In this document: piece by piece, positions 11,489 through 24,175 of the stretch
How positions within the stretch are numbered: position 1 is the first letter of the stretch
Layout of the letters: every line of letters starts with the position of its first letter
Notes under the pieces: generated by a model
What the model was told of the DNA's origin: nothing
Database searches by the model: none
The model's input: the letters and a program-made list of their open reading frames with translations, nothing else
Program-made: the position numbers and the translations under genes
Source of the DNA: Calditrichaceae bacterium
Lineage (GTDB): Bacteria; Calditrichota; Calditrichia; Calditrichales; JBFXGD01
DNA length: 30,306 nt
Assembly: GCA_050178385.1 (NCBI GenBank)
Contig: JBFXGD010000024.1
Coordinates: forward strand, 1-30,306
Direction of reading: 5' to 3'

Positions 11489-11553
11489 CCCTTTTTTGTT
11501 AATATTTGCTGATTTTATTTGAAAATTTAGAGTTCGCTATTTGTTTATAATCC

Positions 11554-11581
11554 TTGACTGGGTATAAAATAATATTAAATT
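11554..11581 (+). promoter_or_regulatory. Putative promoter for the TPR/MotA/ExbD operon
   Basis: TTGACT (11554-11559), 16 bp spacer, TAAATT (11576-11581). Same CCTTGA...TAAATTAA layout as upstream of parA. Confidence 0.45.
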
Positions 11582-11628
11582 AAGCCCAAGGATTTGTCAA
11601 AAGGGTTCATAAAAAGTAGGTCAAAAAT

Positions 11629-14241
11629 ATGATTTCAAAGACCCTTTCTTTGTCTGCTGGTATTTTCTTCTTTTTACTGATTTCATTCTTCCCCGCGGCC
11701 GCACAGGAAGCTGCACAGACTGATCTGGAGTTCAATCAGGCCCTCAGGGTATATGTAACTGGTATGATCGGCGACCTGAGTAAGGAAAGCATTCATAATG
11801 AAAGATTTCTTATAGAACAGATTCGTCTGATCAATAATGAAATCAAATACCGTGTTACGAATGCATCAAAAATTCGCGATCAGTATTTCGAAGGATTACA
11901 GGAGCATCTTGTAGAGATCCAGGCGTTAAAACAGAGGCTTAATTCCGGAAATTCTGCCAAGCTCAATCAATTTATTGATGAATTGCAGAGAAGGATAAAG
12001 GAGACTATCCGGGCGGGTACGATTGATTTTAAAAAGCAAAAGGTTATAGAAGATGCTATACAGCTTCTGTACCTGGCTGAAGAAATGACAAAGCTCGACA
12101 CCGGCGCGCGTCTGGAAGAAAATCCCAGTTTTGTGAAAGGTCTCAACCGCACGAAAACAAATTTTGTTCAATCGTTCGGTGAATCCAATAAAATGGGAAT
12201 CTCCTCCGGAACAGGTGGAAATGGGAACGCCAGCATATTTGATGTTTATGAAGAGTGGAGACATACCGAGCGGCTTAAGTATCATCTGAGATGGACGGAC
12301 ATCCAGATAATAAAAAACAGACTAATTAAAAACGGCACAGCAGATCAAAAAAACAGAATGTTCAGGAATGAGCTTAGGCAAGCCGCATACGCCTATAATT
12401 TCGGATTTTATAATCTGGCGGGAAAATCATTCGAAGAAATCCTAAAAACATACGGCACATTCGGAAATCTTGATGACTGTGTTTATTATCAAAGTGAATC
12501 CAATTTTGCGTTGGGGCGATATAGTCAGGCCCTCGAAGGTTTTAAAAATCTGGTTGAAAAATATCCTTCATCCGTTTATTCGGCTCAGGCTTTCAGAAGG
12601 TTGATTTATTTGTCATATCATTTTGAGAATTACTCAAACGTACTCGCCTATTTTGAAAAAATGAAAGTGATTACATCGCCGAGTGCATCATATTATGATG
12701 AAACACTGCTTCTGGTTACGATGGCAGGTTTAAAAAGCGGTGATTATGAAAGCGCCGTAAAGTATGCGTATGAAATTTCCGCAACATCGGAATACTCGCG
12801 TCAGGCCAAATTCTTGCTGGCGGAAGCTTACGCGGGCGCCAATAATTATGAAGAAGCAATCCAGCAGTTTACGAATCTTCTTTCAATTTCCGGTCTGCAT
12901 CCTGAATTTCGTTTCGCGGTCCTTTTGAAACTGGGTTATTTGAGTTACGAAACAGGCAATATAGATGGCGCTATCAGGTATTTCGATTTGATAAGCTCAC
13001 AGTTCAGCAAATATGACCGTGTTCTGATTGGGTACGCATGGAGTTACTACAAACTTGAATTAAAAAAACTGCCGGATGAAGAAAAAGATTTTACCACAGC
13101 CAAACTGTATCTGGATGCGATTATAGAATCATTTAACGGATCGGATTATTATCTCGAAGCGCGAACTCTGCTGGGATATATAAACCAGCTTGAAGAAAAT
13201 GTTAGCGGAGCGCTTGATAATTTTGAATATGCTTACGGCACAAAAGATGTCAAAGAACTGTCTGACAGAATGAATGAAGAGCGGGAACATATGCGCGCTT
13301 CATACAGAGCCGCCGATAATCTGGAAAAGAAATCGCTTGCTGCAAATAATCTCTCCGGGTATTACCAGGCGAGAGAAATGAAGGACAAAATTGAAAAACC
13401 GCTGGTCGAACTCACTTATTCCGATGTCAGTTCAGAAGGTATCGCCGCGAAAAATGAAATTAAGCGGTTGAACGAACAGATCGAAGAGCTTGACCGCCTG
13501 AAGGCAATAGCCGATGAAAAAGGTGAAAAGAAGATAAAGAATCGAATCGAAGATTTACAATTGAAGATCTATCGTTCGATCAATGCCTACCCCGGAAAGG
13601 AGAACTCTCCGCTCGGTATTAATTATTTTGACGAACATCCGCTTGCCAGAAAGGAAAGTGTGATCGAAAGCGAGAATGCAAAAATCCAATCGCTGCGTGA
13701 TGAATCGAGATTAGAGCGTGAGAATATTATGAAGCGTATCTCTCAGCTTGATGTGGATATTCAGAAGGCGAAAGGTTCCAGAAATTACAAACGTGAAGTG
13801 GAGCTGGAACTCCAGAAAGATAGATTTACGGAGCTGCTGAATAAAATTGACTATCTGGAATCATGGGCTTACAACCTTGATATGATGCATTCCAATATTA
13901 ATCTGGGCAGATGGAGCGATTATGGCGCTTTTGGCGTGGCCAACGTTAATTTTTCCATAAAAAACAGCAAAGAGCAGGATATTTCCGATATGCAGAAACA
14001 GATTGAACAGATTAATGATTTTTTAATGGAGCGGAAAGAATACCTTGAACATAAGATTGGTTTAATTGAGAGTGAAATTACCTTGATGACCAGGAGGGTA
14101 AGACGGCAGGAACGACTTCGTGAGAGAGAGGAACTGAACAGACAGTTTGAGGAATCTTATTTCGATACTCATGAGACAGAAGCAAGAGGCACACAGAACA
14201 CGACCGCGCCGCCGGTGATTAAAAGGGATTCTGAGCAATAA
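11629..14241 (+). CDS. Large exported TPR / coiled-coil protein (possibly GltC/GltE-like)
   Basis: 870 aa with signal peptide (..PAAA|QE), a central TPR array (ESNFALGRYSQALEGFKNLVEKYPSS; FLLAEAYAGANNYEEAIQQF; LIGYAWSYYK) and long flanking coiled coils. The Glt assignment rests on context only. Confidence 0.8.
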   Translation: MISKTLSLSAGIFFFLLISFFPAAAQEAAQTDLEFNQALRVYVTGMIGDLSKESIHNERFLIEQIRLINNEIKYRVTNASKIRDQYFEGLQEHLVEIQALKQRLNSGNSAKLNQFIDELQRRIKETIRAGTIDFKKQKVIEDAIQLLYLAEEMTKLDTGARLEENPSFVKGLNRTKTNFVQSFGESNKMGISSGTGGNGNASIFDVYEEWRHTERLKYHLRWTDIQIIKNRLIKNGTADQKNRMFRNELRQAAYAYNFGFYNLAGKSFEEILKTYGTFGNLDDCVYYQSESNFALGRYSQALEGFKNLVEKYPSSVYSAQAFRRLIYLSYHFENYSNVLAYFEKMKVITSPSASYYDETLLLVTMAGLKSGDYESAVKYAYEISATSEYSRQAKFLLAEAYAGANNYEEAIQQFTNLLSISGLHPEFRFAVLLKLGYLSYETGNIDGAIRYFDLISSQFSKYDRVLIGYAWSYYKLELKKLPDEEKDFTTAKLYLDAIIESFNGSDYYLEARTLLGYINQLEENVSGALDNFEYAYGTKDVKELSDRMNEEREHMRASYRAADNLEKKSLAANNLSGYYQAREMKDKIEKPLVELTYSDVSSEGIAAKNEIKRLNEQIEELDRLKAIADEKGEKKIKNRIEDLQLKIYRSINAYPGKENSPLGINYFDEHPLARKESVIESENAKIQSLRDESRLERENIMKRISQLDVDIQKAKGSRNYKREVELELQKDRFTELLNKIDYLESWAYNLDMMHSNINLGRWSDYGAFGVANVNFSIKNSKEQDISDMQKQIEQINDFLMERKEYLEHKIGLIESEITLMTRRVRRQERLREREELNRQFEESYFDTHETEARGTQNTTAPPVIKRDSEQ

Positions 14242-14285
14242 TTTGATCGATTCATAAAAACACTGTCAATCTTGGAAAAAATATT

Positions 14286-17200
14286 ATGAAATCTATGATG
14301 AATAAAATGTCTTTGACCCGTTTGTTTCTTTTGGTGTTGTTGTACGGATATTTGTCCATACAAACGGTTTATGGGCAGGCTGATCAAACCGGTGCCCAGA
14401 GAGACAGCCTTTTTGACAAAGTTAATCTCGATGAATTGATTAAAATCAAAAAATATTATGAGCAGAATGTCAATAAGCTGAGATCAGAAGAAGAAAAATC
14501 TAGAAACGAAGGATTGAAAGTCGGCGAGGATTTTCTGACAAATAAAGCTTCCAAGGTCGAAAACAGAGATCATATTTACATTAGAATTGCTGAATATTAT
14601 ATAGAAGATGCTGACAGAAATTACGATCAGCAAGTAGAGAAATATGATAAGACTATCCTCGAATACGAAAAAAAGCTGGCTCTTTTTGATGCCGGTGAAA
14701 TATCAGAAGAACCCAAAATGCCTTCTTTCCCTGTTCACGACTACACAAAGGGCATAGAAGTATATGATCGTTTACTTAATGAATATCCGGCCAGTGATTA
14801 TGCGGATGATGCTCTTTACAATAAGGCCTGGCTGCTCGAACGTATGCGCAGGGGAAATGAAAGTCGCAGGCTGTATCAGGAAGTTATCGATAAATACCCG
14901 GATAGTCCTTTCGCGCCGGAATCATATATTCAGCTTGCCGAGTATTATTTTTCTCCCAGGGATGACAAAGATGACGAAGAGCAAGGTATTGTCGAACTTA
15001 AAAAAGCCATTCAGCTTTATAAAAAAGTATTAAAATATAGCGACTCTAAACGGTATGACGAAGCATTGTACAAACTGGGGTGGAGTTATTATAAGCTTGC
15101 GGCGCGTGACCCGTTATACTATAATGACGCGATCACTTACTTCATGGCCGTCGCGGATGATATTACACTTGCCAAAAAACTGGATCCTTCGGATAAAATT
15201 TCTAATCCCAATGTGAGGGATGAGGCCATCGAGTATATCGGTATCAGTTTCACCGATGAAGCATACACGATGACTGGGGTGGATAAGGCAAGAAAGCTGC
15301 TTGAGCGACTTGGCGAAAAAGAATATGGTGTTGAAATAATGCGCGCAATCGGTCAGACCTATCAAAAGATTGATGAGCAGGATAAAGCCATGTACGCGTT
15401 CGTTAATCTGCTTGATATGTATCCGCTTTACGAAGAAGCTCCGCTCATGAGACAAAATATAGTGAATGCGCTTTATTCACTTGGAAGGGATACCGACGCC
15501 TATCAGGAACGGGATACGTTATTCAGGCTGTATAACCCGGATTCGGAGTGGTATACTAAATTGGAAACTTCAGATAAAACAGACAAACTAAAATATATTG
15601 ATTCTGCTTATAAGATTGCTGAAGCCGCGTTCCGGACAAATATTCTGCTTGATCTGGAGAAAGCTGAACAGCTAAATTCAGAAGGTCTTCCCAGCACGGA
15701 ACAATATGAATTGTTTGCGGCAAATTGCAAAGATTATCTAACAGCCTTCCCGACGGATTCAAATGCCTACGATATTAACTGGTCCTATGCATTTATGCTC
15801 GACAGCAGACTTGGGCGTTTTGAAGAAGCTTTTGAAGAATACATGAGAGTCAGTAATGATTATCTTGAGACTTCCCATCAGGAAGCAGCGGCCTTAAATG
15901 CGGTTAAGGATGCAGATACACTTGTCGTTCTTAAATACGGTAAAGGTGATACTGTCCGGTTTAACTTTGCGGATATCGCGCAGCTCAGTCCTGAAGCTCT
16001 GACACCGGAAGAGACCAGGTTAATCGAAGCGTATGATAACTATATCAGGCTATTTCCTACAGGTTCATATACACCCAATTTTCTCGCTGCATCAGGAGGA
16101 ATTTATTATAATCATAAAAAATTCGCGGAAGCAAAAGTATATTTCCAGACCCTTGTTAAGCGTTTCCCGGGAGCAAAGGAGAAAAGTCTGGCATTGCGGT
16201 CGATTATGGATTCATACTTCGCGCTCGGAAAGTTCAAGGATAGTGAAATCATAGCAAAACGTATTATGAGTGATGACAGAATTCCGGATGAACAGAGGGA
16301 ATTTGCAGAAAAACGTTTGGGACAGGCCATTTTTAAGAATGCTGAATTTCTATCGGAGCAGGGAGATTACTTCGCTGCCGCGGGGGAATTTGTGCGAATA
16401 AATAATGAAGTTGCCAATGATCCTCTGCTCGTGGAGAGCGCGCTCTATAACGGCGGATTGAACTATCAGAAAGCCAAAGACTGGGTTAGGGCAATCGAAA
16501 CATTTGATATTCTTGCTTCTCAGCATCCAAAGTCAAAGTTCGCAATTGACGCTCTTGAAAATATGGCGGATGATTATAAGGAGCTGGAACAGTATGTGAA
16601 CGCCGGGCAGACCTATGAGAGGATCTATACAAATTACACGGATACAAAAAATGCTGAAATAGCGTTGTACAACGCGAGTTACTATTTCGAAAAAGGCAAA
16701 GAATGGTTAGATGCCATCCGCGTCAATAACATGTATATTACCGCTTTCCCATCGCAGCCTTACTCGGTGGATTTGTTTTTCAAAAATGCGCAGCTTTACC
16801 TGAATTCAGACAACATAACCGAAGCAAACGGTATATATGCAGAATTTGCAACACGGTATCCGGATGATCCAAGAACGGTCACCGCATTTTATGAACGTGG
16901 TAATTACTATCTCGACAACGGGCAGGAAACAGCCGCTAAGGTCGAATTCAATAAGGCCATCCAGAAAAGTGAAGCTTTCAGAAAAAGCGGAAAAGATCCG
17001 AATGCATATATAGCCGGGGAAGCAGTAAACAAACTGGCCGGAATTCTCCATACGGAATTTACATCTATCAAGATGACTCAACCAAAGAGCAATATAGATT
17101 ATCAGCAGGAAAGATTAAAAAACTTATTAACAGAGCTTAATCAGACTTATTCAAAAGTTCTGACATTCGGTTCACCGCGTAGTTTTGAGGCTACTTATAA

Positions 17201-19052
17201 TACGGCAAAAAGTTATGAAGAATTCGCGAGAATTTATGCATCTCAGGAAATTGATCCAAATCTGGATGTAAATAAGTTTTTTCTTGAAAAGAAAAGAATA
17301 AATGAACAGTCAGCGGCTTTGTTCCAGAAATCAGTTGATGAATATAAAAATGTTGTAACAAATATTCCCATTCTCGCGGAAAAATTGGGGGTAGATCTTT
17401 ACGTCTCAGCGGATTCAACGATGGATGTCGTAGATGCTGGCAGTGACACCACTGCCGTATTGGCCAGAGCGGCGGAAAGAGATTCTACAAGAGAACTGGG
17501 GATAAAATTTCAGGAAAAAGCGAGAGATAAAGTTTCTGAGCTGCAGTACACAATGGCTTCGCTTACGTCAGAAAATATTTATTACGCTCTGGACGTGAAA
17601 CCGCCGAATGATGAACCCTTGACAAAAATTATTTTCGAAGTCCAGCTGTTTCAGCAGGCGGTCAGTCCCGCCATCACGCAGACAATCGAATCGCATCTTA
17701 GCAATATAAAAGAAGCGGAGGCGATGGGTCTTTCCAACAAATACGTCGAAGAATCTAAACGTCAGATATTGTTAACATCCAATATACTTGCGGAGGAATT
17801 TGAATCGCTGGTAGATGTTGCGTTGGGTGAATATACTTCCATAACCCGTCAGATAATGGATCTCGTCGAAAAAGAGTTTGGAACACTAAACGCAAAGGGA
17901 CAGGACTATTACGCGCTGGACAATAGCGCCAGCCAAATGATAGATTTTACAAAAATTTTATCTGAAAAAATCATAGATTCATACACAAAAACGTTGGTGC
18001 TTGCACAGGAAAACGGCATTCAAAATGATATCGTCCGCAATACGCAGGATCGTCTTCTCCGCTACGCGGTTGAAATAACAGACCGAATGAGCGGTCTCTC
18101 GGACTCCGCCAATGCGATCAGTGATAATTATACCGTGAAATTTGATTCAACAGAAAATTATAATTTCGATGACGCAAAAGTAATGTTCGAAACCTACTAT
18201 TATTCTTTTAACGATAATTCCCTGGCTATTCTGGAGAATGCCTACAAGGTAAGACAGGATTATGATATCAAGAATCTTTGGGCAAATAAATTGCTTTATA
18301 AACTCATAAAACTTGATCCGGTTACCTACTCCGCGAGTATCGAGAAAGAGAAAATTATAGTTTCTTCAGATGAATCCTGGCTGTACACAAAGCGTTATTA
18401 TGGGGATCAATGGACAAAATCGGAATTTAATGATTCGGACTGGTCATCTCCGCAAATAGTACCGGATTATAATAATCAGTTTGCGGCTTTGGGGGTCAAT
18501 CCTAAATCAATTTGGATAAGTCAGATACCGCTCACGTCGCAGCAAACAAGCCTTTCGGCTGCGGATACGCTGGCCGTCGCCGATTCACTGAACCTGAACA
18601 TTCAGCCTGATACATCGGCAACAATGGTTGTGGTTGACACGTCCGCGTTAGTTTCGGCGGATACGGTTGCATTTTTCAGGAAAGAATTCCAGCTTGACGG
18701 AACACCTGTTTCCGGTGAGATCTTCCTTACCGCGGATGATGATTTCAGATTTTATTTGAATGGGGAATATATCATTGATGATAGTGACAATTCATTCGCA
18801 AAACTTGACACGCTTGATTACTATACATTTGATATTTTTCTTAAGCCGGGCAGTAATCAGATCGCTATCGATGTTGAAGACAAAGATATGACGGCTGGTG
18901 GTCTAAAATTCTATGGGACCTTCGATATTTTGCCAGCGGATATCACCGCCGCGGCTCAAGAAAAAGCTAAAGTAAAAACATATGATGTCGATGTTTCCAT
19001 ACTTAAAAAAATAAATATTTTGAATAAAAACCGCATTTCTGTTAATCAATAA
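14286..19052 (+). CDS. Giant exported TPR protein (GltD/AgmU-like) with a C-terminal beta-sandwich domain
   Basis: 1588 aa with signal peptide (..TVYG|QA) and many TPRs (YDRLLNEYPASDYADDALYNKAW; VIDKYPDSPFAPESYIQLAEYYF; ALYKLGWSYYK; ALYNASYYF). C-terminal FRKEF..TADDDFRFYLNG..LKPGSNQIAI domain. Confidence 0.85.
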   Translation: MKSMMNKMSLTRLFLLVLLYGYLSIQTVYGQADQTGAQRDSLFDKVNLDELIKIKKYYEQNVNKLRSEEEKSRNEGLKVGEDFLTNKASKVENRDHIYIRIAEYYIEDADRNYDQQVEKYDKTILEYEKKLALFDAGEISEEPKMPSFPVHDYTKGIEVYDRLLNEYPASDYADDALYNKAWLLERMRRGNESRRLYQEVIDKYPDSPFAPESYIQLAEYYFSPRDDKDDEEQGIVELKKAIQLYKKVLKYSDSKRYDEALYKLGWSYYKLAARDPLYYNDAITYFMAVADDITLAKKLDPSDKISNPNVRDEAIEYIGISFTDEAYTMTGVDKARKLLERLGEKEYGVEIMRAIGQTYQKIDEQDKAMYAFVNLLDMYPLYEEAPLMRQNIVNALYSLGRDTDAYQERDTLFRLYNPDSEWYTKLETSDKTDKLKYIDSAYKIAEAAFRTNILLDLEKAEQLNSEGLPSTEQYELFAANCKDYLTAFPTDSNAYDINWSYAFMLDSRLGRFEEAFEEYMRVSNDYLETSHQEAAALNAVKDADTLVVLKYGKGDTVRFNFADIAQLSPEALTPEETRLIEAYDNYIRLFPTGSYTPNFLAASGGIYYNHKKFAEAKVYFQTLVKRFPGAKEKSLALRSIMDSYFALGKFKDSEIIAKRIMSDDRIPDEQREFAEKRLGQAIFKNAEFLSEQGDYFAAAGEFVRINNEVANDPLLVESALYNGGLNYQKAKDWVRAIETFDILASQHPKSKFAIDALENMADDYKELEQYVNAGQTYERIYTNYTDTKNAEIALYNASYYFEKGKEWLDAIRVNNMYITAFPSQPYSVDLFFKNAQLYLNSDNITEANGIYAEFATRYPDDPRTVTAFYERGNYYLDNGQETAAKVEFNKAIQKSEAFRKSGKDPNAYIAGEAVNKLAGILHTEFTSIKMTQPKSNIDYQQERLKNLLTELNQTYSKVLTFGSPRSFEATYNTAKSYEEFARIYASQEIDPNLDVNKFFLEKKRINEQSAALFQKSVDEYKNVVTNIPILAEKLGVDLYVSADSTMDVVDAGSDTTAVLARAAERDSTRELGIKFQEKARDKVSELQYTMASLTSENIYYALDVKPPNDEPLTKIIFEVQLFQQAVSPAITQTIESHLSNIKEAEAMGLSNKYVEESKRQILLTSNILAEEFESLVDVALGEYTSITRQIMDLVEKEFGTLNAKGQDYYALDNSASQMIDFTKILSEKIIDSYTKTLVLAQENGIQNDIVRNTQDRLLRYAVEITDRMSGLSDSANAISDNYTVKFDSTENYNFDDAKVMFETYYYSFNDNSLAILENAYKVRQDYDIKNLWANKLLYKLIKLDPVTYSASIEKEKIIVSSDESWLYTKRYYGDQWTKSEFNDSDWSSPQIVPDYNNQFAALGVNPKSIWISQIPLTSQQTSLSAADTLAVADSLNLNIQPDTSATMVVVDTSALVSADTVAFFRKEFQLDGTPVSGEIFLTADDDFRFYLNGEYIIDDSDNSFAKLDTLDYYTFDIFLKPGSNQIAIDVEDKDMTAGGLKFYGTFDILPADITAAAQEKAKVKTYDVDVSILKKINILNKNRISVNQ

Positions 19053-19064
19053 AGGAATAGGTTT

Positions 19065-19397
19065 ATGAAAGTCATATTTTTGACAATCAGTCTGTGTTTT
19101 GTGTTCGCTGCCAGTGTTATTGGACAGGATACGAATAATCAGCAAATCCGGACACAAAACCAGAACGCAGATGATGTAATAGAGCTTGAAGTGAGCGAAA
19201 TAAAAATAACTATAGAAAAACCTCAAGTTACACTGTTTTCAGACCGAATAAAACCAGAGTTCGATGACACAAACCTCGAAAAATCCTTCTACCGTGAAAT
19301 TGTGGGTGAAGGGGAAAAATTCGTATTTGAATTTAAGAACAGTAAAGAACCCGTAGATCAGATTGATATAAAGCAATTATTAAATGTGCATAAATAA
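19065..19397 (+). CDS. Small exported protein, GltF/CglF-like
   Basis: Signal peptide (..VIG|QD), a Q/N-rich stretch, then IKITIEKPQV....R...F....LEKSFYREI. This matches the KP...R...F...SF..I pattern I recall for GltF-type proteins. Confidence 0.6.
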   Translation: MKVIFLTISLCFVFAASVIGQDTNNQQIRTQNQNADDVIELEVSEIKITIEKPQVTLFSDRIKPEFDDTNLEKSFYREIVGEGEKFVFEFKNSKEPVDQIDIKQLLNVHK

Positions 19398-19442
19398 AAA
19401 CCATTAGATAGGCAGAAAATGATTTTAAGGAGGGATTAGTTT

Positions 19443-20102
19443 ATGTTATTCTTAACCCAATTTGGTGATGCATTTGCATTTAGTGCAGAAGGATCCTTTT
19501 ACATGTATGCGATCGCCTTATTTGCTGCCGTTGCAGCTGCAATTTCGATTGAGAGAATATATTATATTGTCGTGCGATCAAACGTCAATGCTGATAAATT
19601 CATGACAGAAGTTAGAAAGCTGGTTGCGGGAGGCAATATTGAACGGGCCATAGAGCTATGTGAAAAAGGCAAGCAAAAAGCTCTGCCGTTTGTTGTGCTT
19701 CGCGGATTAAAACGGGCAAATGAAAGTGAAACTCTTGATTTCCGGGCCATTCAGAATGCGGTTGATGAAGGCACTCTGGAAGTTATTCCTAAGTTGAGAG
19801 AAAGAACCGGCTATCTTTCCATGCTTGCAAACGTTGCGACACTTACAGGACTGATGGGCACGATTTACGGTCTTATTCTTTCATTCGCGGCTGTAGGTAG
19901 TGAAGGTGTACCTGAATCAGAAAAAAGTAAACTTCTGGCCACAGGTATCTCGACCGCTATGAATACAACAATATTTGGTCTAATGGTGGCAATCCCGACT
20001 CTGATCGTTTATACTTATATCACCAGTAAAACAAGCAACATCATTGATGAACTGGATGAACATTTGGTAAAACTGATCAACTTGATAACCGGCAACAGAT
20101 AA
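19443..20102 (+). CDS. MotA/TolQ/ExbB proton-channel subunit (AglR-like)
   Basis: Three TMs, ISIER, AVDEGTLEVIPKLRERTGYLSMLANVATLTGLMGTIYGLI..F and GISTAMNTTIFGLMVAIP. AAGGAGG RBS. Confidence 0.93.
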   Translation: MLFLTQFGDAFAFSAEGSFYMYAIALFAAVAAAISIERIYYIVVRSNVNADKFMTEVRKLVAGGNIERAIELCEKGKQKALPFVVLRGLKRANESETLDFRAIQNAVDEGTLEVIPKLRERTGYLSMLANVATLTGLMGTIYGLILSFAAVGSEGVPESEKSKLLATGISTAMNTTIFGLMVAIPTLIVYTYITSKTSNIIDELDEHLVKLINLITGNR

Positions 20103-20122
20103 GAAACGAAGGAAAATAAATA

Positions 20123-20668
20123 ATGGCATATAAACCTTCACTTCGCCGAAAAGGCGAAGAGGTAGACATGGAGCTGGATATCAGGCCTGTCATGAACTTG
20201 ATGGTTGTGCTGATTCCGTTGCTTATCGCCAGTGCCGAATGGGTAAAGCTTGGGGTGATCGAAATAAATGTGCCTCCGAGTAAATCTGTTGGAGGCGCCG
20301 GCGACGGCGAACAGAATGAAGTTCAGGAAAAAGAACTTAAGCTGGGATTGAAGATCGCTATAACAAAGGATGGGATAACCATCGGCAATGCCCAGACATT
20401 ACTCGCCGGAGAAGAAGGAGACGGTCCGACAGTTCCCGTGTCAGAAGACGGAACATACGATTATGATAAGCTGAAAGAGAAGCTTGTCGAAATCAAGAAG
20501 AAAGTAAAAGGGAAAGGTTTTAAGGACGAAAATCGCGCTGTGATCACAGCTTCGAAGGAAATTGAATACCAGGTCATCATCAAAGTTATGGATACTTCAC
20601 AGACCTATGAAGATGAAAATGCGATTTTGCCTTTATTTCCCGAAATAAATTTTGGCAGTATTTTATAA
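20123..20668 (+). CDS. ExbD/TolR-family subunit 1 (AglQ-like; TM Asp replaced by Asn)
   Basis: Single TM LDIRPVMNLMVVLIPLLI and a periplasmic ExbD-type C-terminus (ITASKEIEYQVIIKVMD...LFPEI). Confidence 0.9.
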   Translation: MAYKPSLRRKGEEVDMELDIRPVMNLMVVLIPLLIASAEWVKLGVIEINVPPSKSVGGAGDGEQNEVQEKELKLGLKIAITKDGITIGNAQTLLAGEEGDGPTVPVSEDGTYDYDKLKEKLVEIKKKVKGKGFKDENRAVITASKEIEYQVIIKVMDTSQTYEDENAILPLFPEINFGSIL

Positions 20669-20693
20669 TAGACAATAACGGAGCGTTCATTAT

Positions 20694-21179
20694 ATGGCTT
20701 ACCAACCTTCAAAATCAAAGAAACACCTTGTTGCAGAATCAGGTAGTCTCAATATGAACTCGATGATGGACATGATGACCATTATCCTTCTGTTTCTTTT
20801 AAAATCATTCTCTACAGAAGGGGCACTGGTTACACCATCAGAAGTATTGAGATTGCCGACATCAGTCCAGGGTGAAAAGCCAAAAAAGGAATTAAACGTT
20901 TCGATTTCGAAAAATGAAATTCTCGTTAACGATAATGTAGTCGCAACGATTAAAGATATTCCTGAAGATCAGATGGTCATAACATCTTTATTCGCTAAGC
21001 TGGGTGAATATGCTAAACAGGAGCGGGAACTCGAAATTGATATCGGTAAGGAATTCACTCATGAAGTAATAATACAGGGGGATGAAAAAATTCCTTTCGA
21101 ATTACTTTTTAAGGTGATGTTTACATGCAGTAGATCAGATTTTTATAAAATGCGTCTCTTGACGATTAAAGCAGGCTAA
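20694..21179 (+). CDS. ExbD/TolR-family subunit 2 (AglS-like)
   Basis: TM LNMNSMMDMMTIILLFLLKSFS, LRLPTS and IIQGDEKIPFELLFKVMFTC, which are AglS-type signatures. Confidence 0.92.
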   Translation: MAYQPSKSKKHLVAESGSLNMNSMMDMMTIILLFLLKSFSTEGALVTPSEVLRLPTSVQGEKPKKELNVSISKNEILVNDNVVATIKDIPEDQMVITSLFAKLGEYAKQERELEIDIGKEFTHEVIIQGDEKIPFELLFKVMFTCSRSDFYKMRLLTIKAG

Positions 21180-21212
21180 TAGATTAGTATCAAACTACAA
21201 AAAGGTGAGTTA

Positions 21213-22298
21213 ATGAAAACACCAAATGTGCAGGGCGCATCAAGACCAGCGGGTGCAGGCGGCTATCGACTTGTGGCTTTCCCAAAAGAGTTCGAAAGAA
21301 ATATGTGGGAAAGTATCGACAGAAGGTTTTACACAATTCTTCTGGCCTCATTGGCACTGATCTATGGTCTGGTTATATATTTGGCCAATCATGAGTATCC
21401 GCAGGACTTGATCGACAAAGAAATTAAAAGAAAATATATACAGAAATTTTATGCCGCAGAATTTGAAGAACCTGTACAGCAAGCAACTGAAGAAATCGGA
21501 GCAGGTCTGGGAGAAGAAGAAAAGCCTGAGGAAAAAGTTGATGAACGCGCAAAACGTGATGAAGGAAAACGCGCGGAAGCGACAGGTACATCGGCTTCTG
21601 AAAGAAGAAATATGCGGCGTGAAGCGGCTGCCAGAAGAGGAGCACAGCGTGCCGCGATGGAGCAGTCAGTCGCAGGTTCAGGAATTTTAGCTGAGCTCTC
21701 GGCCGGCGGAGGCGGTGGATCAGGTGATGCTGTTTACGACGTTCTTGGTTCCGGTGGTGCTGGCGGGGTAGGCGATCTGGAGCAGGTATTGGGAAGTGTA
21801 GGCGGATTGCAGACAGCGTCATCTGGCGCAAGCAGGTCAGTGCTTGGCGCACGGTCCTCAGGCGGAAATCGTTCCGGAGGAGCAGGGATTGATGATCTTG
21901 TCCAGAGCGGTGTTGGTCAGAGCGGTTCTGTTTCAATAAAACGTCAGGGCTCCTTTGCCATCAAAATGGAAGAAGGAACTGTTTCCGGAAAGGGATCAAA
22001 ATCGGCAAATCGATCAGCGGATGCCATCAGCAGAATTATCGCCAAACACGCGGATGCCATCGAGAACTGTTATAAAAAAGAATCCCGGATTAATCCGAAT
22101 CTTAAGGGCAGTATCACTGTTCAGTTTTCGATTTTGGCAGATGGCCGGGTTGATAATGTCCGGATAATTGACTCAACAATTCGGAATAAAAATGTTGAAA
22201 ATTGTGTCATCTCGAGAATCAGAAGATGGCGATTTGATAAAATTGATGCCAGTGAAGGTGATGTATCCTTCAGACAAAAATATATTTTCAGCAGTTAG
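21213..22298 (+). CDS. TonB/TolA-like energy transducer with AgmX/PglI-type C-terminal domain (GltG-like)
   Basis: Single N-proximal TM, a charged helix, a Gly/Ser-rich linker, and C-terminal RS...I...I......I..CY......NPNLKG.ITVQFSI..DGRV......S.......VENCV...IRRWRF with the two-Cys pattern. Confidence 0.88.
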   Translation: MKTPNVQGASRPAGAGGYRLVAFPKEFERNMWESIDRRFYTILLASLALIYGLVIYLANHEYPQDLIDKEIKRKYIQKFYAAEFEEPVQQATEEIGAGLGEEEKPEEKVDERAKRDEGKRAEATGTSASERRNMRREAAARRGAQRAAMEQSVAGSGILAELSAGGGGGSGDAVYDVLGSGGAGGVGDLEQVLGSVGGLQTASSGASRSVLGARSSGGNRSGGAGIDDLVQSGVGQSGSVSIKRQGSFAIKMEEGTVSGKGSKSANRSADAISRIIAKHADAIENCYKKESRINPNLKGSITVQFSILADGRVDNVRIIDSTIRNKNVENCVISRIRRWRFDKIDASEGDVSFRQKYIFSS

Positions 22299-22325
22299 AA
22301 ACCTGAATAAAAAATATCACATCTT

Positions 22326-22351
22326 AAGCCGCTTTTTAGCGGCTTTTTTTT
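22326..22351 (+). terminator. Intrinsic terminator ending the 7-gene operon
   Basis: AAGCCGCT-tttt-AGCGGCTT followed by a T run. Confidence 0.9.
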
Positions 22352-22360
22352 GTGACAAAT

Positions 22361-22389
22361 TTGTTAACTTTGGGTTTATTGCGTAAATT
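22361..22389 (+). promoter_or_regulatory. Putative aspS promoter
   Basis: TTGTTA (22361-22366), 17 bp spacer, TAAATT (22384-22389), lying between the terminator and the AAGGAG RBS. Confidence 0.5.
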
Positions 22390-22420
22390 AACGCCATTTT
22401 TTAGAAGGAGTTTAACATCG

Positions 22421-24175
22421 ATGAAAAGAACGCATAACTGCGCGGATTTGAACCTGGATTACCTTGGCCGGACTGTCGTATTGAATGGATGGGTGAATAA
22501 GTGGCGTGATCACGGAGGATTGATTTTTATTGATATTCGGGATCGATACGGGATTACTCAAGTCGTATTTAATCCGGAAGTGAGTAAACCGGTTTATGAA
22601 AACGCAAAAAAATTAAGGACAGAATATGTAATAGCGGTGAAGGGCGTCGTAGAAAAAAGACCACCGGAATCTGTTAATAAAAAGATGAATACGGGTGAGA
22701 TCGAAGTACATATCAGTGAACTTGAAATACTGAATATTGCTAAAACGACACCATTCGAAATAATTGAGAATTTGGATGTTAATGAAGAACTTAGACTCAA
22801 ATATCGCTATTTGGATTTGCGAAGAAGATCGCTGCAGCAAAATCTGCTCACCAGAAGCAAGATTTATAAAATTGTAAGAGATTCTCTGAATGATGAGGGA
22901 TTTGTTGAAATCGAAACTCCTGTTTTAATGAAGAGTACACCCGAGGGAGCCCGGGATTTCCTGGTGCCGAGCCGTAATTACCCGGGCAGTTTCTATGCAT
23001 TGCCGCAGTCGCCGCAAACCTATAAGCAGTTGCTGATGGTCGCGGGATTTGATAAATATTTTCAGATCGTAAAATGTTTTCGGGATGAGGATCTCCGCAA
23101 AGACCGGCAGCCGGAATTTACACAAATTGATATAGAAATGTCATTTGTTGACGAAGATGATATCAGGGATATGGCGGGAAGGCTTATAAAGAAAATATTC
23201 AGGGAAACGATCGGTTATGAAATTTCTGAAAAAATTCAAAAAATGACCTATAAAGAAGCGTTTGAGTCATACGGATCAGATAAACCTGATCTTCGTTTTG
23301 ATCTTCGCATTCATAATTTAACCGACATATTTGCGGAATCGGATTTTGTCGCCTTTAATAAAGTATTAGCTGACGCGGGTGTGATTGCCGGATTTCGTTT
23401 ACCTTCAGGTGCGGGACTCAGCAGAAAAAAAATTGATCAATTAGTAGAAGATTCAAAAAAGGCCGGCGCGAAGGGCCTTGCATATGTCAAATATGAAAAT
23501 GGTGAATTTACCGGCGGAATATCAAAGTTTTTGAAAGATGATGAAAAAAGAAAATTAATAAATGCTTTGAACATTGAAGAAAATGATTTAATATTAATTA
23601 TAGCGGATTTATATCAGATCACTTACACAGTTCTTGGCCACCTGCGTATTTATTTAGCTGAAATGTTGAATCTAATAAATAAAGATGCGTTTTCTCTCTT
23701 ATGGATTTTGGATTTCCCTTTGCTGGAGTTTAGCGATGATGAAAATCGATATGTAGCGAGACATCATCCATTTACCAGCCCAAAGAAGGAAGACCTGGAT
23801 AAGCTGGATAAGGAACCGGAAAAAGTCATTGCCAGAGCGTACGATCTTGTGTTAAATGGGAATGAAATCGCCGGCGGCAGCATCAGAATACATACAAAAG
23901 ACTTACAGCGGAAAATGTTTGATGTTCTGAAAATGAGTCCTGATGAGGCGGACGCGAAATTCGGATTTCTGATGAAAGCCTTTGAATACGGGGCTCCACC
24001 GCATGGGGGAATTGCTTTTGGTCTTGACCGCCTTGTGATGCTGTTAACAAGATCTGATTCAATTCGTGATGTGATTGCTTTTCCGAAAACAAGTTCAGCG
24101 CTTTCACTAATGGACGGAGCGCCATCGGATGTCTCGGAAGACCAATTAAAAGAGTTAGGATTAAAAATTGTATAA
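22421..24175 (+). CDS. aspS: Aspartate--tRNA ligase (bacterial type with GAD insert)
   Basis: MKRTHNC start after AAGGAG. RDHGGLIFIDIRD, TPEGARDFLVPSR, LPQSPQ, CFRDEDLRKDRQPEFTQID, HHPFT and GAPPHGGIAFGLDR. The ORF-track start at 22352 is too early. Confidence 0.99.
   Translation: MKRTHNCADLNLDYLGRTVVLNGWVNKWRDHGGLIFIDIRDRYGITQVVFNPEVSKPVYENAKKLRTEYVIAVKGVVEKRPPESVNKKMNTGEIEVHISELEILNIAKTTPFEIIENLDVNEELRLKYRYLDLRRRSLQQNLLTRSKIYKIVRDSLNDEGFVEIETPVLMKSTPEGARDFLVPSRNYPGSFYALPQSPQTYKQLLMVAGFDKYFQIVKCFRDEDLRKDRQPEFTQIDIEMSFVDEDDIRDMAGRLIKKIFRETIGYEISEKIQKMTYKEAFESYGSDKPDLRFDLRIHNLTDIFAESDFVAFNKVLADAGVIAGFRLPSGAGLSRKKIDQLVEDSKKAGAKGLAYVKYENGEFTGGISKFLKDDEKRKLINALNIEENDLILIIADLYQITYTVLGHLRIYLAEMLNLINKDAFSLLWILDFPLLEFSDDENRYVARHHPFTSPKKEDLDKLDKEPEKVIARAYDLVLNGNEIAGGSIRIHTKDLQRKMFDVLKMSPDEADAKFGFLMKAFEYGAPPHGGIAFGLDRLVMLLTRSDSIRDVIAFPKTSSALSLMDGAPSDVSEDQLKELGLKIV

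Follow-up and report, generated by a model that had tools for sequence, protein, structure and literature searches.

A seven-gene operon of the Calditrichota very probably encodes a member of the Agl-Glt core complex

Between the ATP synthase genes and aspS, a bacterium of the phylum Calditrichota carries seven closely packed genes whose products resemble parts of an ion-driven machine of the cell envelope, and the locus raises the question of which machine this is and what it does for the cell. The genes lie on contig JBFXGD010000024.1 of assembly GCA_050178385.1 (Calditrichaceae bacterium). The window analysed here is the whole of this 30.3-kb contig (30,306 nucleotides; our contig C24), part of a 3.89-Mb, 94% complete metagenome-assembled genome (MAG), and sequencing runs carrying this DNA come from landfill and other metagenomes. 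An original prediction, made from the sequence alone, had proposed a self-contained, trans-envelope machine of the Agl-Glt type, of undescribed function and apparently lying outside the myxobacteria, and had noted related cores in a few other lineages. The lineage was rightly read, and the operon is very probably the Calditrichota member of the Agl-Glt 'core complex', a kind of system that has been in print since 2011.

As defined by Luciano et al. (2011, PLoS Genet 7:e1002268), the core complex comprises the Group B genes gltC, gltD, gltE, gltG, aglR, aglQ and aglS together with one additional gene. They report such clusters, whose function they give as unknown, from Gammaproteobacteria, a single betaproteobacterium, Geobacter and also Fibrobacter succinogenes, and their examples include Gura_3070-3077 of Geobacter uraniireducens and Fisuc_1892-1897 of F. 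succinogenes. The Geobacter order in their Table S3 is GltC, GltD, GltE, an unlisted gene, AglR, AglQ, AglS and GltG. The Calditrichota genes likewise form a single operon, in the Geobacter order minus GltE. No GltE is listed for F. succinogenes either, and its GltG homologue is a 308-amino-acid (aa) 'TonB family' protein; the one found here has 361 aa, and is thus also short, and also lacks an FHA domain. The present system differs from the core complex in its host, in a GltD homologue with 300-480 aa more and a sugar-binding-like sandwich at its end, and in a small gene that can be linked to GltF; the Geobacter small gene was compared by its position. In the literature we found no description of an Agl-Glt/AgmX/PglI-type system in Calditrichota.

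The operon consists of seven genes on the + strand between positions 11629 and 22298, with successive gaps of 44, 12, 45, 20, 25 and 33 nt. Their sizes and families, as originally proposed, were borne out by the listing of open reading frames (ORFs) and by Pfam and NCBIfam searches. The last gene encodes the 361-aa protein, which is built of about 40 cytoplasmic residues, one transmembrane helix, a charged and then Gly/Ser-rich linker, and an AgmX/PglI C-terminal domain. This domain was recognised by NF033768 over the last 92 residues (95.1 bits, cut-off 40), and its cysteines C286 and C331 are invariant in 79 aligned relatives, so that the two-Cys AgmX/PglI-type C-terminus of the original prediction stands. 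The model NF033760 (gliding_GltG) scored 95.6 bits over residues 22-345, corresponding to positions 322-632 of its 650, without reaching the equivalog cut-off of 650; the match runs from the transmembrane helix to the C-terminus, i.e. over the second half of the Myxococcus model. Family scans detected no FHA domain on this protein. It passes TIGR01352 (tonB_Cterm; 35 bits vs 27.1) and stays below the cut-off of Pfam TonB_C (23.6 vs 24.6), and its closest homologues are labelled Calditrichaceae, Caldithrix or Calditrichota 'TonB family protein' in the source records.

The linker of this GltG-like protein contains nearly invariant positions across the 79 sequences. In a model of the Myxococcus machine the GltG linker packs into a groove of GltD (PMC11761067), and conservation of the linker fits such docking rather than a passive spacer; it may be a new detail. 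The predicted complex of GltG-like residues 250-361 with the mature 110-aa protein of the operon had a score of 0.00.

The same genome (G000) encodes a second, unlinked GltG-like protein of 310 aa among unrelated neighbours (contig C88, 10047-10979; locus L015). Its build is the same: a DRRF motif ahead of one transmembrane helix, a linker, and an AgmX/PglI tail with two Cys that scores 62 bits. Among 39 genomes belonging to the same order, 31 gave a second match of the GltG type. The 310-aa protein may serve the same scaffold as a second, GltJ-like transducer.

The stator genes point in the same direction. The 219-aa protein matches MotA_ExbB (PF01618, 2.5e-23), and we placed it in an IQ-TREE phylogeny of 53 MotA/ExbB proteins. 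The input held 17 of 49 operon-linked motors from FCB genomes (Fibrobacterota-Chlorobiota-Bacteroidota-related, here Calditrichota, KSB1/Zhuqueibacterota and unnamed MAGs), three motors of Bdellovibrionales and Myxococcota loci that have glt-like genes linked to them, paralogues from Myxococcus sp., Bdellovibrionales and Zhuqueibacterota genomes, the three other paralogues of the genome itself, and Escherichia coli TolQ and ExbB; rows below 150 or above 360 aa and one duplicate locus were excluded. The 219-aa subunit fell into a clade of 26 of the 53 rows (support 100/99) with all 17 operon-linked FCB sequences, the three Glt-linked motors (L075, L076, L078) and two Myxococcus motors (L133, L130). 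E. coli TolQ and ExbB and the genome's own other paralogues lie outside it. Branching with canonical ExbBD or TolQR, the outcome against which the original prediction had been set, was thus not observed. Each of the 17 FCB motors has two ExbD genes in its operon, and every non-FCB member of the clade, for which rows alone the context was counted, has two ExbD genes on the same strand in its locus. The two downstream ExbD genes and the lengths lead us to infer that AglR and its M2 paralogue are represented by L133 and L130.

The 181- and 161-aa proteins match ExbD (PF02472; 5.6e-14 and 3.6e-13). Of the two ExbD proteins of Myxococcus locus L133, the first is preferred by a hidden Markov model (HMM) of the 181-aa protein (90 bits vs 12.5) and the second by that of the 161-aa protein (119 bits vs 31). 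By these profile scores the two genes are old, distinct paralogues, each corresponding to one of the positions AglQ and AglS, and the lengths given in Table S3 of Luciano et al. fit the first ExbD as AglQ and the second as AglS. In place of the Asp found in E. coli TolR and ExbD, the AglQ-position subunit has an invariant Asn (50/50), whereas the transmembrane Asp of the AglS-position subunit is invariant (50/50). This transmembrane Asp is the proton-carrying residue of TolR and ExbD. The same Asn/Asp pattern was seen in the other non-Myxococcus members of the clade examined, while both Myxococcus pairs have Asp twice. The asymmetry of the stator is possibly a new detail. Apart from the operon-linked copy, a Zhuqueibacterota genome (G088, contig C4, 35475-38834; L124) and a Bdellovibrionales genome (G087; L127) carry a further motor of the AglR clade with two ExbD genes and the Asn/Asp pattern.

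Both large proteins of the operon match TPR families. For comparison we used a paralogous cluster of Myxococcus sp. RHSTA-1-4 (locus L090, 444-12068), which encodes, in this order, GltC-, GltD-, GltE-, CglF- and GltG-like proteins, all below the equivalog cut-offs; the cluster lies directly downstream of a small MglA-like GTPase and is itself followed by a cyclic-nucleotide-binding-like protein. The Calditrichota HMM of the 1588-aa protein aligns collinearly (positions 57-1026) to the 1124-aa GltD-like protein of this locus (362 bits, E 1.6e-111), and residues 1-1040 compared by hhalign with the GltD-like family gave prob 100 and E 3e-116 over 921 columns. On this profile evidence the 1588-aa protein is a GltD homologue. 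It contains four TPR stretches of the YbgF/CpoB type, which together exceed the TIGR02795 cut-off (107.8 bits vs 90.1). Automatic annotation could therefore misname the protein, as it beats the YbgF/CpoB equivalog cut-off by the sum of these stretches.

About 550 additional residues at its C-terminus have no counterpart in the Myxococcota GltD-, GltE- or GltC-like families by hhalign. The AlphaFold2 (AF2) model of residues 1030-1588 (pLDDT, the predicted score in the local distance difference test, 82.8) shows a helical bundle followed by a beta-sandwich. Foldseek returned glycoside hydrolase family 2 (GH2) enzymes as its top matches (5uj6_A, E 1.5e-4, prob 1.0), and VIA-align superposed the sandwich on residues 32-184 of 5uj6_B with Z 13.6 and a root-mean-square deviation of 3.0 over 128 aligned positions at 20% identity. 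Among 41 members of the GltD family, Pfam gave weak matches to Glyco_hydro_2_N in eight and to Bac_rhamnosid_N in 10. The modelled domain thus appears sugar-binding-like, with the galactose-binding-like fold of GH2 N-terminal domains, and such a GH2-type C-terminal domain on GltD is possibly a new detail. A fusion of GltD with GltE was considered as the cause of the 1588-aa length and rejected, since the C-terminal 548 residues matched the GltE-like family with prob 0.1.

The 870-aa protein matched the Myxococcota GltC-like family with prob 99.8 and E 7.8e-29 over 286 columns, in its TPR part only, and more weakly the GltD-like (E 7.8e-11) and GltE-like (E 1e-4) families. The C-terminal halves of the 870-aa and GltC-like proteins do not align. 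The AF2 model of residues 480-870 (pLDDT 84.9) is all helical, the C-terminal 390 aa consisting of long helices, and Foldseek found no match to these 391 residues at E<=0.001. NCBIfam GltC was not matched at E<=1. The protein is a probable GltC counterpart. No counterpart of GltE was found: there is no eighth gene and no NF033758 match, and with the GltE-like family the two TPR proteins, and likewise the C-terminal part of the GltD homologue, gave no match (prob <=57).

The 110-aa protein matches no Pfam or NCBIfam family. We compared 47 members of its family by hhalign with 22 GltF-like proteins from Myxococcota and Bdellovibrionota loci, collected from a seed, the L090 protein that matches NCBIfam gliding_CglF; CglF we take to be GltF (MXAN_4868), as its gene position suggests. 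The two families aligned with prob 94.9 and E 4.6e-8 over 45 columns, within the mature part of the protein (residues 38-81). The score of 48.9 compares with a maximum of 16.3 for 30 column shuffles, 16.0 for the reversed profile and at most 15.9 for unrelated families, and the match persists without the signal peptide (36.4, prob 86.6). Moreover, the Calditrichota HMM of the small protein picks, in eight Myxococcota/Bdellovibrionota loci, only the small ORF that immediately precedes the gene for the GltG-like or AglR-like protein. In NCBIfam at E<=1, 70 proteins of this family gave scattered matches only, which were read as noise. By profile comparison the 110-aa protein is a distant GltF homologue. 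Similarity to Glt proteins, originally expected of the TPR and small proteins, was therefore found for all three, for the GltC-like one within its TPR part.

According to Luciano et al., gltF is restricted to Myxococcales and Bdellovibrionales, which have no homologue of the core's additional gene. In Table S3 the Geobacter core has its unlisted additional gene at the place held here by the 110-aa gene. The profile match, which covers the FCB-type family, suggests that the small gene before aglR is a diverged gltF. Neither the two ExbD proteins nor the 110-aa protein has a paralogue in the genome at E<1e-3.

The operon is conserved throughout the phylum. The 361-aa protein was matched (E<=1e-10) in 84 of 86 Calditrichota genomes, including all 53 of high quality. 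A full-length orthologue is present in 82 of the 86; two genomes (G017, G037) match only via the C-terminal domain of a paralogue, and the four genomes without a full-length orthologue are 52-88% complete. In eight sampled Calditrichota genomes, drawn from six of the coded families, the order atpD-atpC, seven genes, aspS is identical (8/8). A scan of species-representative genomes with a single peptide pattern, derived from a nine-sequence alignment, gave 80 loci and reached no Fibrobacter, Geobacter or gammaproteobacterial locus. The 43 closest loci (L028-L070) are labelled KSB1, Zhuqueibacterota, Calditrichota, 'Cytophagia' or unnamed. The full seven-gene order is present in 32 of them, the other 11 are cut by contig ends and consistent as far as visible, and none deviates; aspS lies downstream in 28. 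Since the order recurs in 8/8 genomes of the phylum and in 32/43 further loci, the arrangement is not due to chance. These observations support the operon as an old, vertically inherited, housekeeping-type part of the genome, in agreement with the earlier proposal of a core system inherited between atp and aspS. The coordinates of the operon and its parts are given in Table 1.

Table 1. Features of the operon and its borders in the 30,306-nt window
Feature	Position	Strand	Evidence or description
Intergenic region after atpC, possible promoter	11489..11628	+	140 nt; three 9-of-12 sigma-70-like matches (11544-11573, 11554-11581, 11606-11633)
870-aa exported TPR protein, probably GltC-like	11629..14241	+	TPR families, position, best profile match
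1588-aa exported GltD homologue with added C-terminal part	14286..19052	+	HMM and hhalign
Predicted beta-sandwich domain of GltD homologue, residues ~1353-1549	18342..18932	+	AF2 model, Foldseek, VIA-align
110-aa exported protein, distant GltF (CglF) homologue	19065..19397	+	hhalign
219-aa AglR-like MotA/TolQ/ExbB channel subunit	19443..20102	+	PF01618, IQ-TREE
181-aa AglQ-position ExbD/TolR-like subunit, Asn25 replacing the transmembrane Asp	20123..20668	+	PF02472
161-aa AglS-position ExbD/TolR-like subunit, transmembrane Asp26	20694..21179	+	PF02472
361-aa GltG-like transducer without FHA domain	21213..22298	+	NF033768, NF033760
AgmX/PglI C-terminal domain of GltG-like protein	22014-22289	+	NF033768
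Intrinsic terminator	22326..22351 (hairpin 22326-22345)	+	8-bp stem (5 G-C pairs), loop of 4 and a following T run

Of the borders originally proposed for the operon, the terminator holds and the promoter is no more than a possible one. The terminator hairpin starts 27 nt past the last gene and is the top-ranked terminator-like site in the region, in which 14 such sites were found, a number not above that in shuffled sequences (10.9, standard deviation 3.8). Evidence for the promoter is weak, as 9-of-12 sigma-70-like matches are common in the region (50 found vs 32.6 expected). Judged by eye from their N-termini, both TPR proteins and the 110-aa protein appear to carry type I signal peptides without a lipobox.

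The upstream flank contains parAB, a gene for an M23 peptidase and atpBFHAGDC, and the downstream flank aspS, a gene for a LysM protein, phoH, a thiolase gene, hbd, nusB and secA. As had been claimed, the window contains no TonB-dependent receptor, TolB, Pal or barrel: none of these families was matched among the 21 flanking ORFs at E<=1e-5. The aspS ORF (22352-24175) is listed from a GTG right after the T run of the terminator, and aspS models align only from residue 23-24; its true start probably lies about 20 codons downstream of this GTG. All ORFs of the window (1-30306) that were scanned or assigned as genes are on the + strand, and the GC skew is positive throughout. The window starts with parA and parB followed by the atp operon, an arrangement that is common near the replication origin.

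With the Tol-Pal and ExbBD-TonB systems the operon shares the stator superfamily, a single-pass transducer with a TonB_C-like domain and TPR modules of the YbgF type. It differs from them in its separate motor clade, its two different ExbD proteins, its two-Cys AgmX/PglI tail and the absence of TolB, Pal or a receptor. Membership of the ExbBD-TonB systems is not supported either: the spacer is Gly/Ser-rich and not Pro-rich, the window holds no receptor and the motor lies outside the canonical clades. Four MotA/ExbB genes were found in the genome, and the three others belong to tolQ-tolR-tolA-tolB-pal-ybgF (contig C29), exbB-exbD-exbD-tonB and tonB-exbB-exbD clusters. Since a canonical Tol-Pal system and two Ton systems are thus encoded elsewhere, the operon is an extra system and neither Ton nor Tol.

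The likeness to the Myxococcus Agl-Glt machine and its Nfs and glt-like paralogues extends to the AglRQS stator, the GltG-type tail, the GltD scaffold and a homologous GltF. In contrast to Myxococcus, the motor genes lie inside the operon, and Asn stands at the AglQ position, which is Asp in both of the Myxococcus pairs examined. A further difference is that the window lacks an outer-membrane module, an adhesin, GltE, GltI/GltJ/AglZ and an FHA domain. GltA/B/H/K and CglB were not found among the ORFs of the window, and genome-wide a single query from L090, the 250-aa protein encoded upstream of the glt-like cluster, matched nothing in a search without a positive control. GltI, GltJ and AglZ are not encoded in the window, to which the search for them was confined. 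A search for the GldM family gave no match anywhere, its controls being equally silent. Of the self-contained, trans-envelope, Agl-Glt-like ion-driven machine originally proposed, homology thus upholds the Agl-Glt-like and ion-driven part, whereas 'self-contained' and 'trans-envelope' lack support, as the window encodes no outer-membrane part.

How such a machine would work can be sketched from the model of the Myxococcus system. By homology, the AglR-like channel subunit and the AglQ-like/AglS-like pair form an ion-driven stator in the inner membrane, in which only the AglS-like subunit keeps the Asp; the GltG-like protein is a transducer of the TonB/TolA type and the GltD homologue a giant scaffold of the periplasm, joined by the TPR protein in the GltC position and the small GltF-like one. 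Ion flow through the stator would move the GltG-like protein via its transmembrane helix, and the linker and disulfide-bearing C-terminal domain of the latter would attach to the GltD scaffold. Beneath the outer membrane, the assembly would be extended by GltF and the GltC-like protein. The GltD scaffold, finally, may hold a glycan (peptidoglycan or a surface polymer) via its sugar-binding-like C-terminal domain.

Taken as a whole, the explanation that we give somewhat better than an even chance is that a Glt core performs a constitutive envelope task on a glycan and does not drive focal-adhesion gliding. Preferring a constitutive task on the glycan layer to gliding is a separate step, in which our confidence falls a little short of even. 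It is favoured by the window having no outer-membrane module, adhesin, FHA domain, GltI or GltJ, by the universality of the system, by its housekeeping neighbours and by the sugar-binding-like domain. The logic of such a machine would be closer to that of Tol-Pal or of the Nfs spore-coat machine than to that of a motility engine.

Several points weigh against this explanation. No equivalog cut-off of the NCBIfam gliding models was reached, and the GltC, GltE and CglF models were unmatched at E<=0.01. CglF was absent from the 25 most frequently matched of the 43 NCBIfam families that 70 relatives of the 110-aa protein matched at E<=1. The assignment of GltC draws only on the TPR part and the gene position. 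The window's own copy of the sandwich has no sugar-binding Pfam match, and a shared fold shows no ligand. No outer-membrane partner is encoded in the window, and the genome has an MglA/MglB pair.

The best of the alternatives, although an unlikely one, sees in the operon a Tol-Pal-like accessory for division or outer-membrane tethering, in which the GltD homologue would serve as a giant CpoB/YbgF linking the motor to constriction of the outer membrane or to the synthesis of peptidoglycan. It would account for the four YbgF/CpoB-type TPR stretches above the TIGR02795 cut-off, for a TolQR-like motor family, and for a system that is universal in the phylum and lies among housekeeping genes. However, the canonical Tol-Pal operon on contig C29 is complete and has its own YbgF, no TolB or Pal is linked to the present operon, and motor and transducer belong to Glt-linked clades.

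Still less probable, in our opinion, is a true gliding engine whose outer-membrane parts and regulators would be encoded elsewhere. In the machines of Myxococcus and Bdellovibrio, each gene of the operon is matched by a counterpart, and the genome search for MglAB proposed earlier did reveal an MglB-like/MglA-like pair, which is however unlinked to the operon. This pair (contig C3, 4887-9455; L140) consists of an MglB-like Roadblock/LC7 protein (170 aa) adjoining an MglA-like GTPase (194 aa); the latter is 56% identical to the GTPase beside Myxococcus locus L090, and a HAMP protein and two DUF4388 proteins come before the pair. A gliding engine is further disfavoured by the missing GltA/B/H/K, CglB, GltI, GltJ and AglZ in the window and by the GltG-like protein without FHA domain. 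Luciano et al. argued that the core alone does not drive motility. In the accessible part of the genome paper on Caldithrix abyssi (Kublanov 2017), flagellar and type IV pilus genes and tumbling motility are described, Bacteroidetes-type gliding genes are given as absent, and no gliding is reported.

An energiser of an outer-membrane gate, either a specialised TonB-type uptake system or a secretion device, is just as improbable: an uptake or secretion gate was voiced for the core in the CglB preprint, the C-terminal domain passes tonB_Cterm and public records name a 'TonB family protein', but no TonB-dependent receptor or barrel lies in operon or window, two canonical TonB systems exist elsewhere, the linker is Gly/Ser-rich rather than Pro-rich, Pfam TonB_C remains below its cut-off, and the two giant periplasmic scaffolds would be left unexplained.

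Returning to a glycan-directed envelope task of the Glt core, a wider and rather doubtful extension may be proposed. Next to Ton and Tol, the Glt core might represent a third class of ion-driven envelope energiser, a housekeeping one that is fixed in entire phyla of the FCB-related group (Calditrichota, KSB1/Zhuqueibacterota). A half-dead stator with one Asp per AglQ/AglS pair would then drive a periplasmic shaft of GltG, GltF, GltD and GltC that grips, moves or remodels the glycan layer via the GltD domain, and the gliding and spore-coat assembly of Myxococcus would be later specialisations.

The finding is a further example of a system already in print since 2011. In the Calditrichota, a phylum with cultured members for which we found no gliding described in the literature, the core is universal, single-copy and free of motility add-ons, and therefore offers a clear setting for finding out the task of the ancestral machine. 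Three details each give a direct handle on this question: the GltF homologue outside Myxococcota and Bdellovibrionota, the Asn/Asp stator and the sugar-binding-like domain of GltD.

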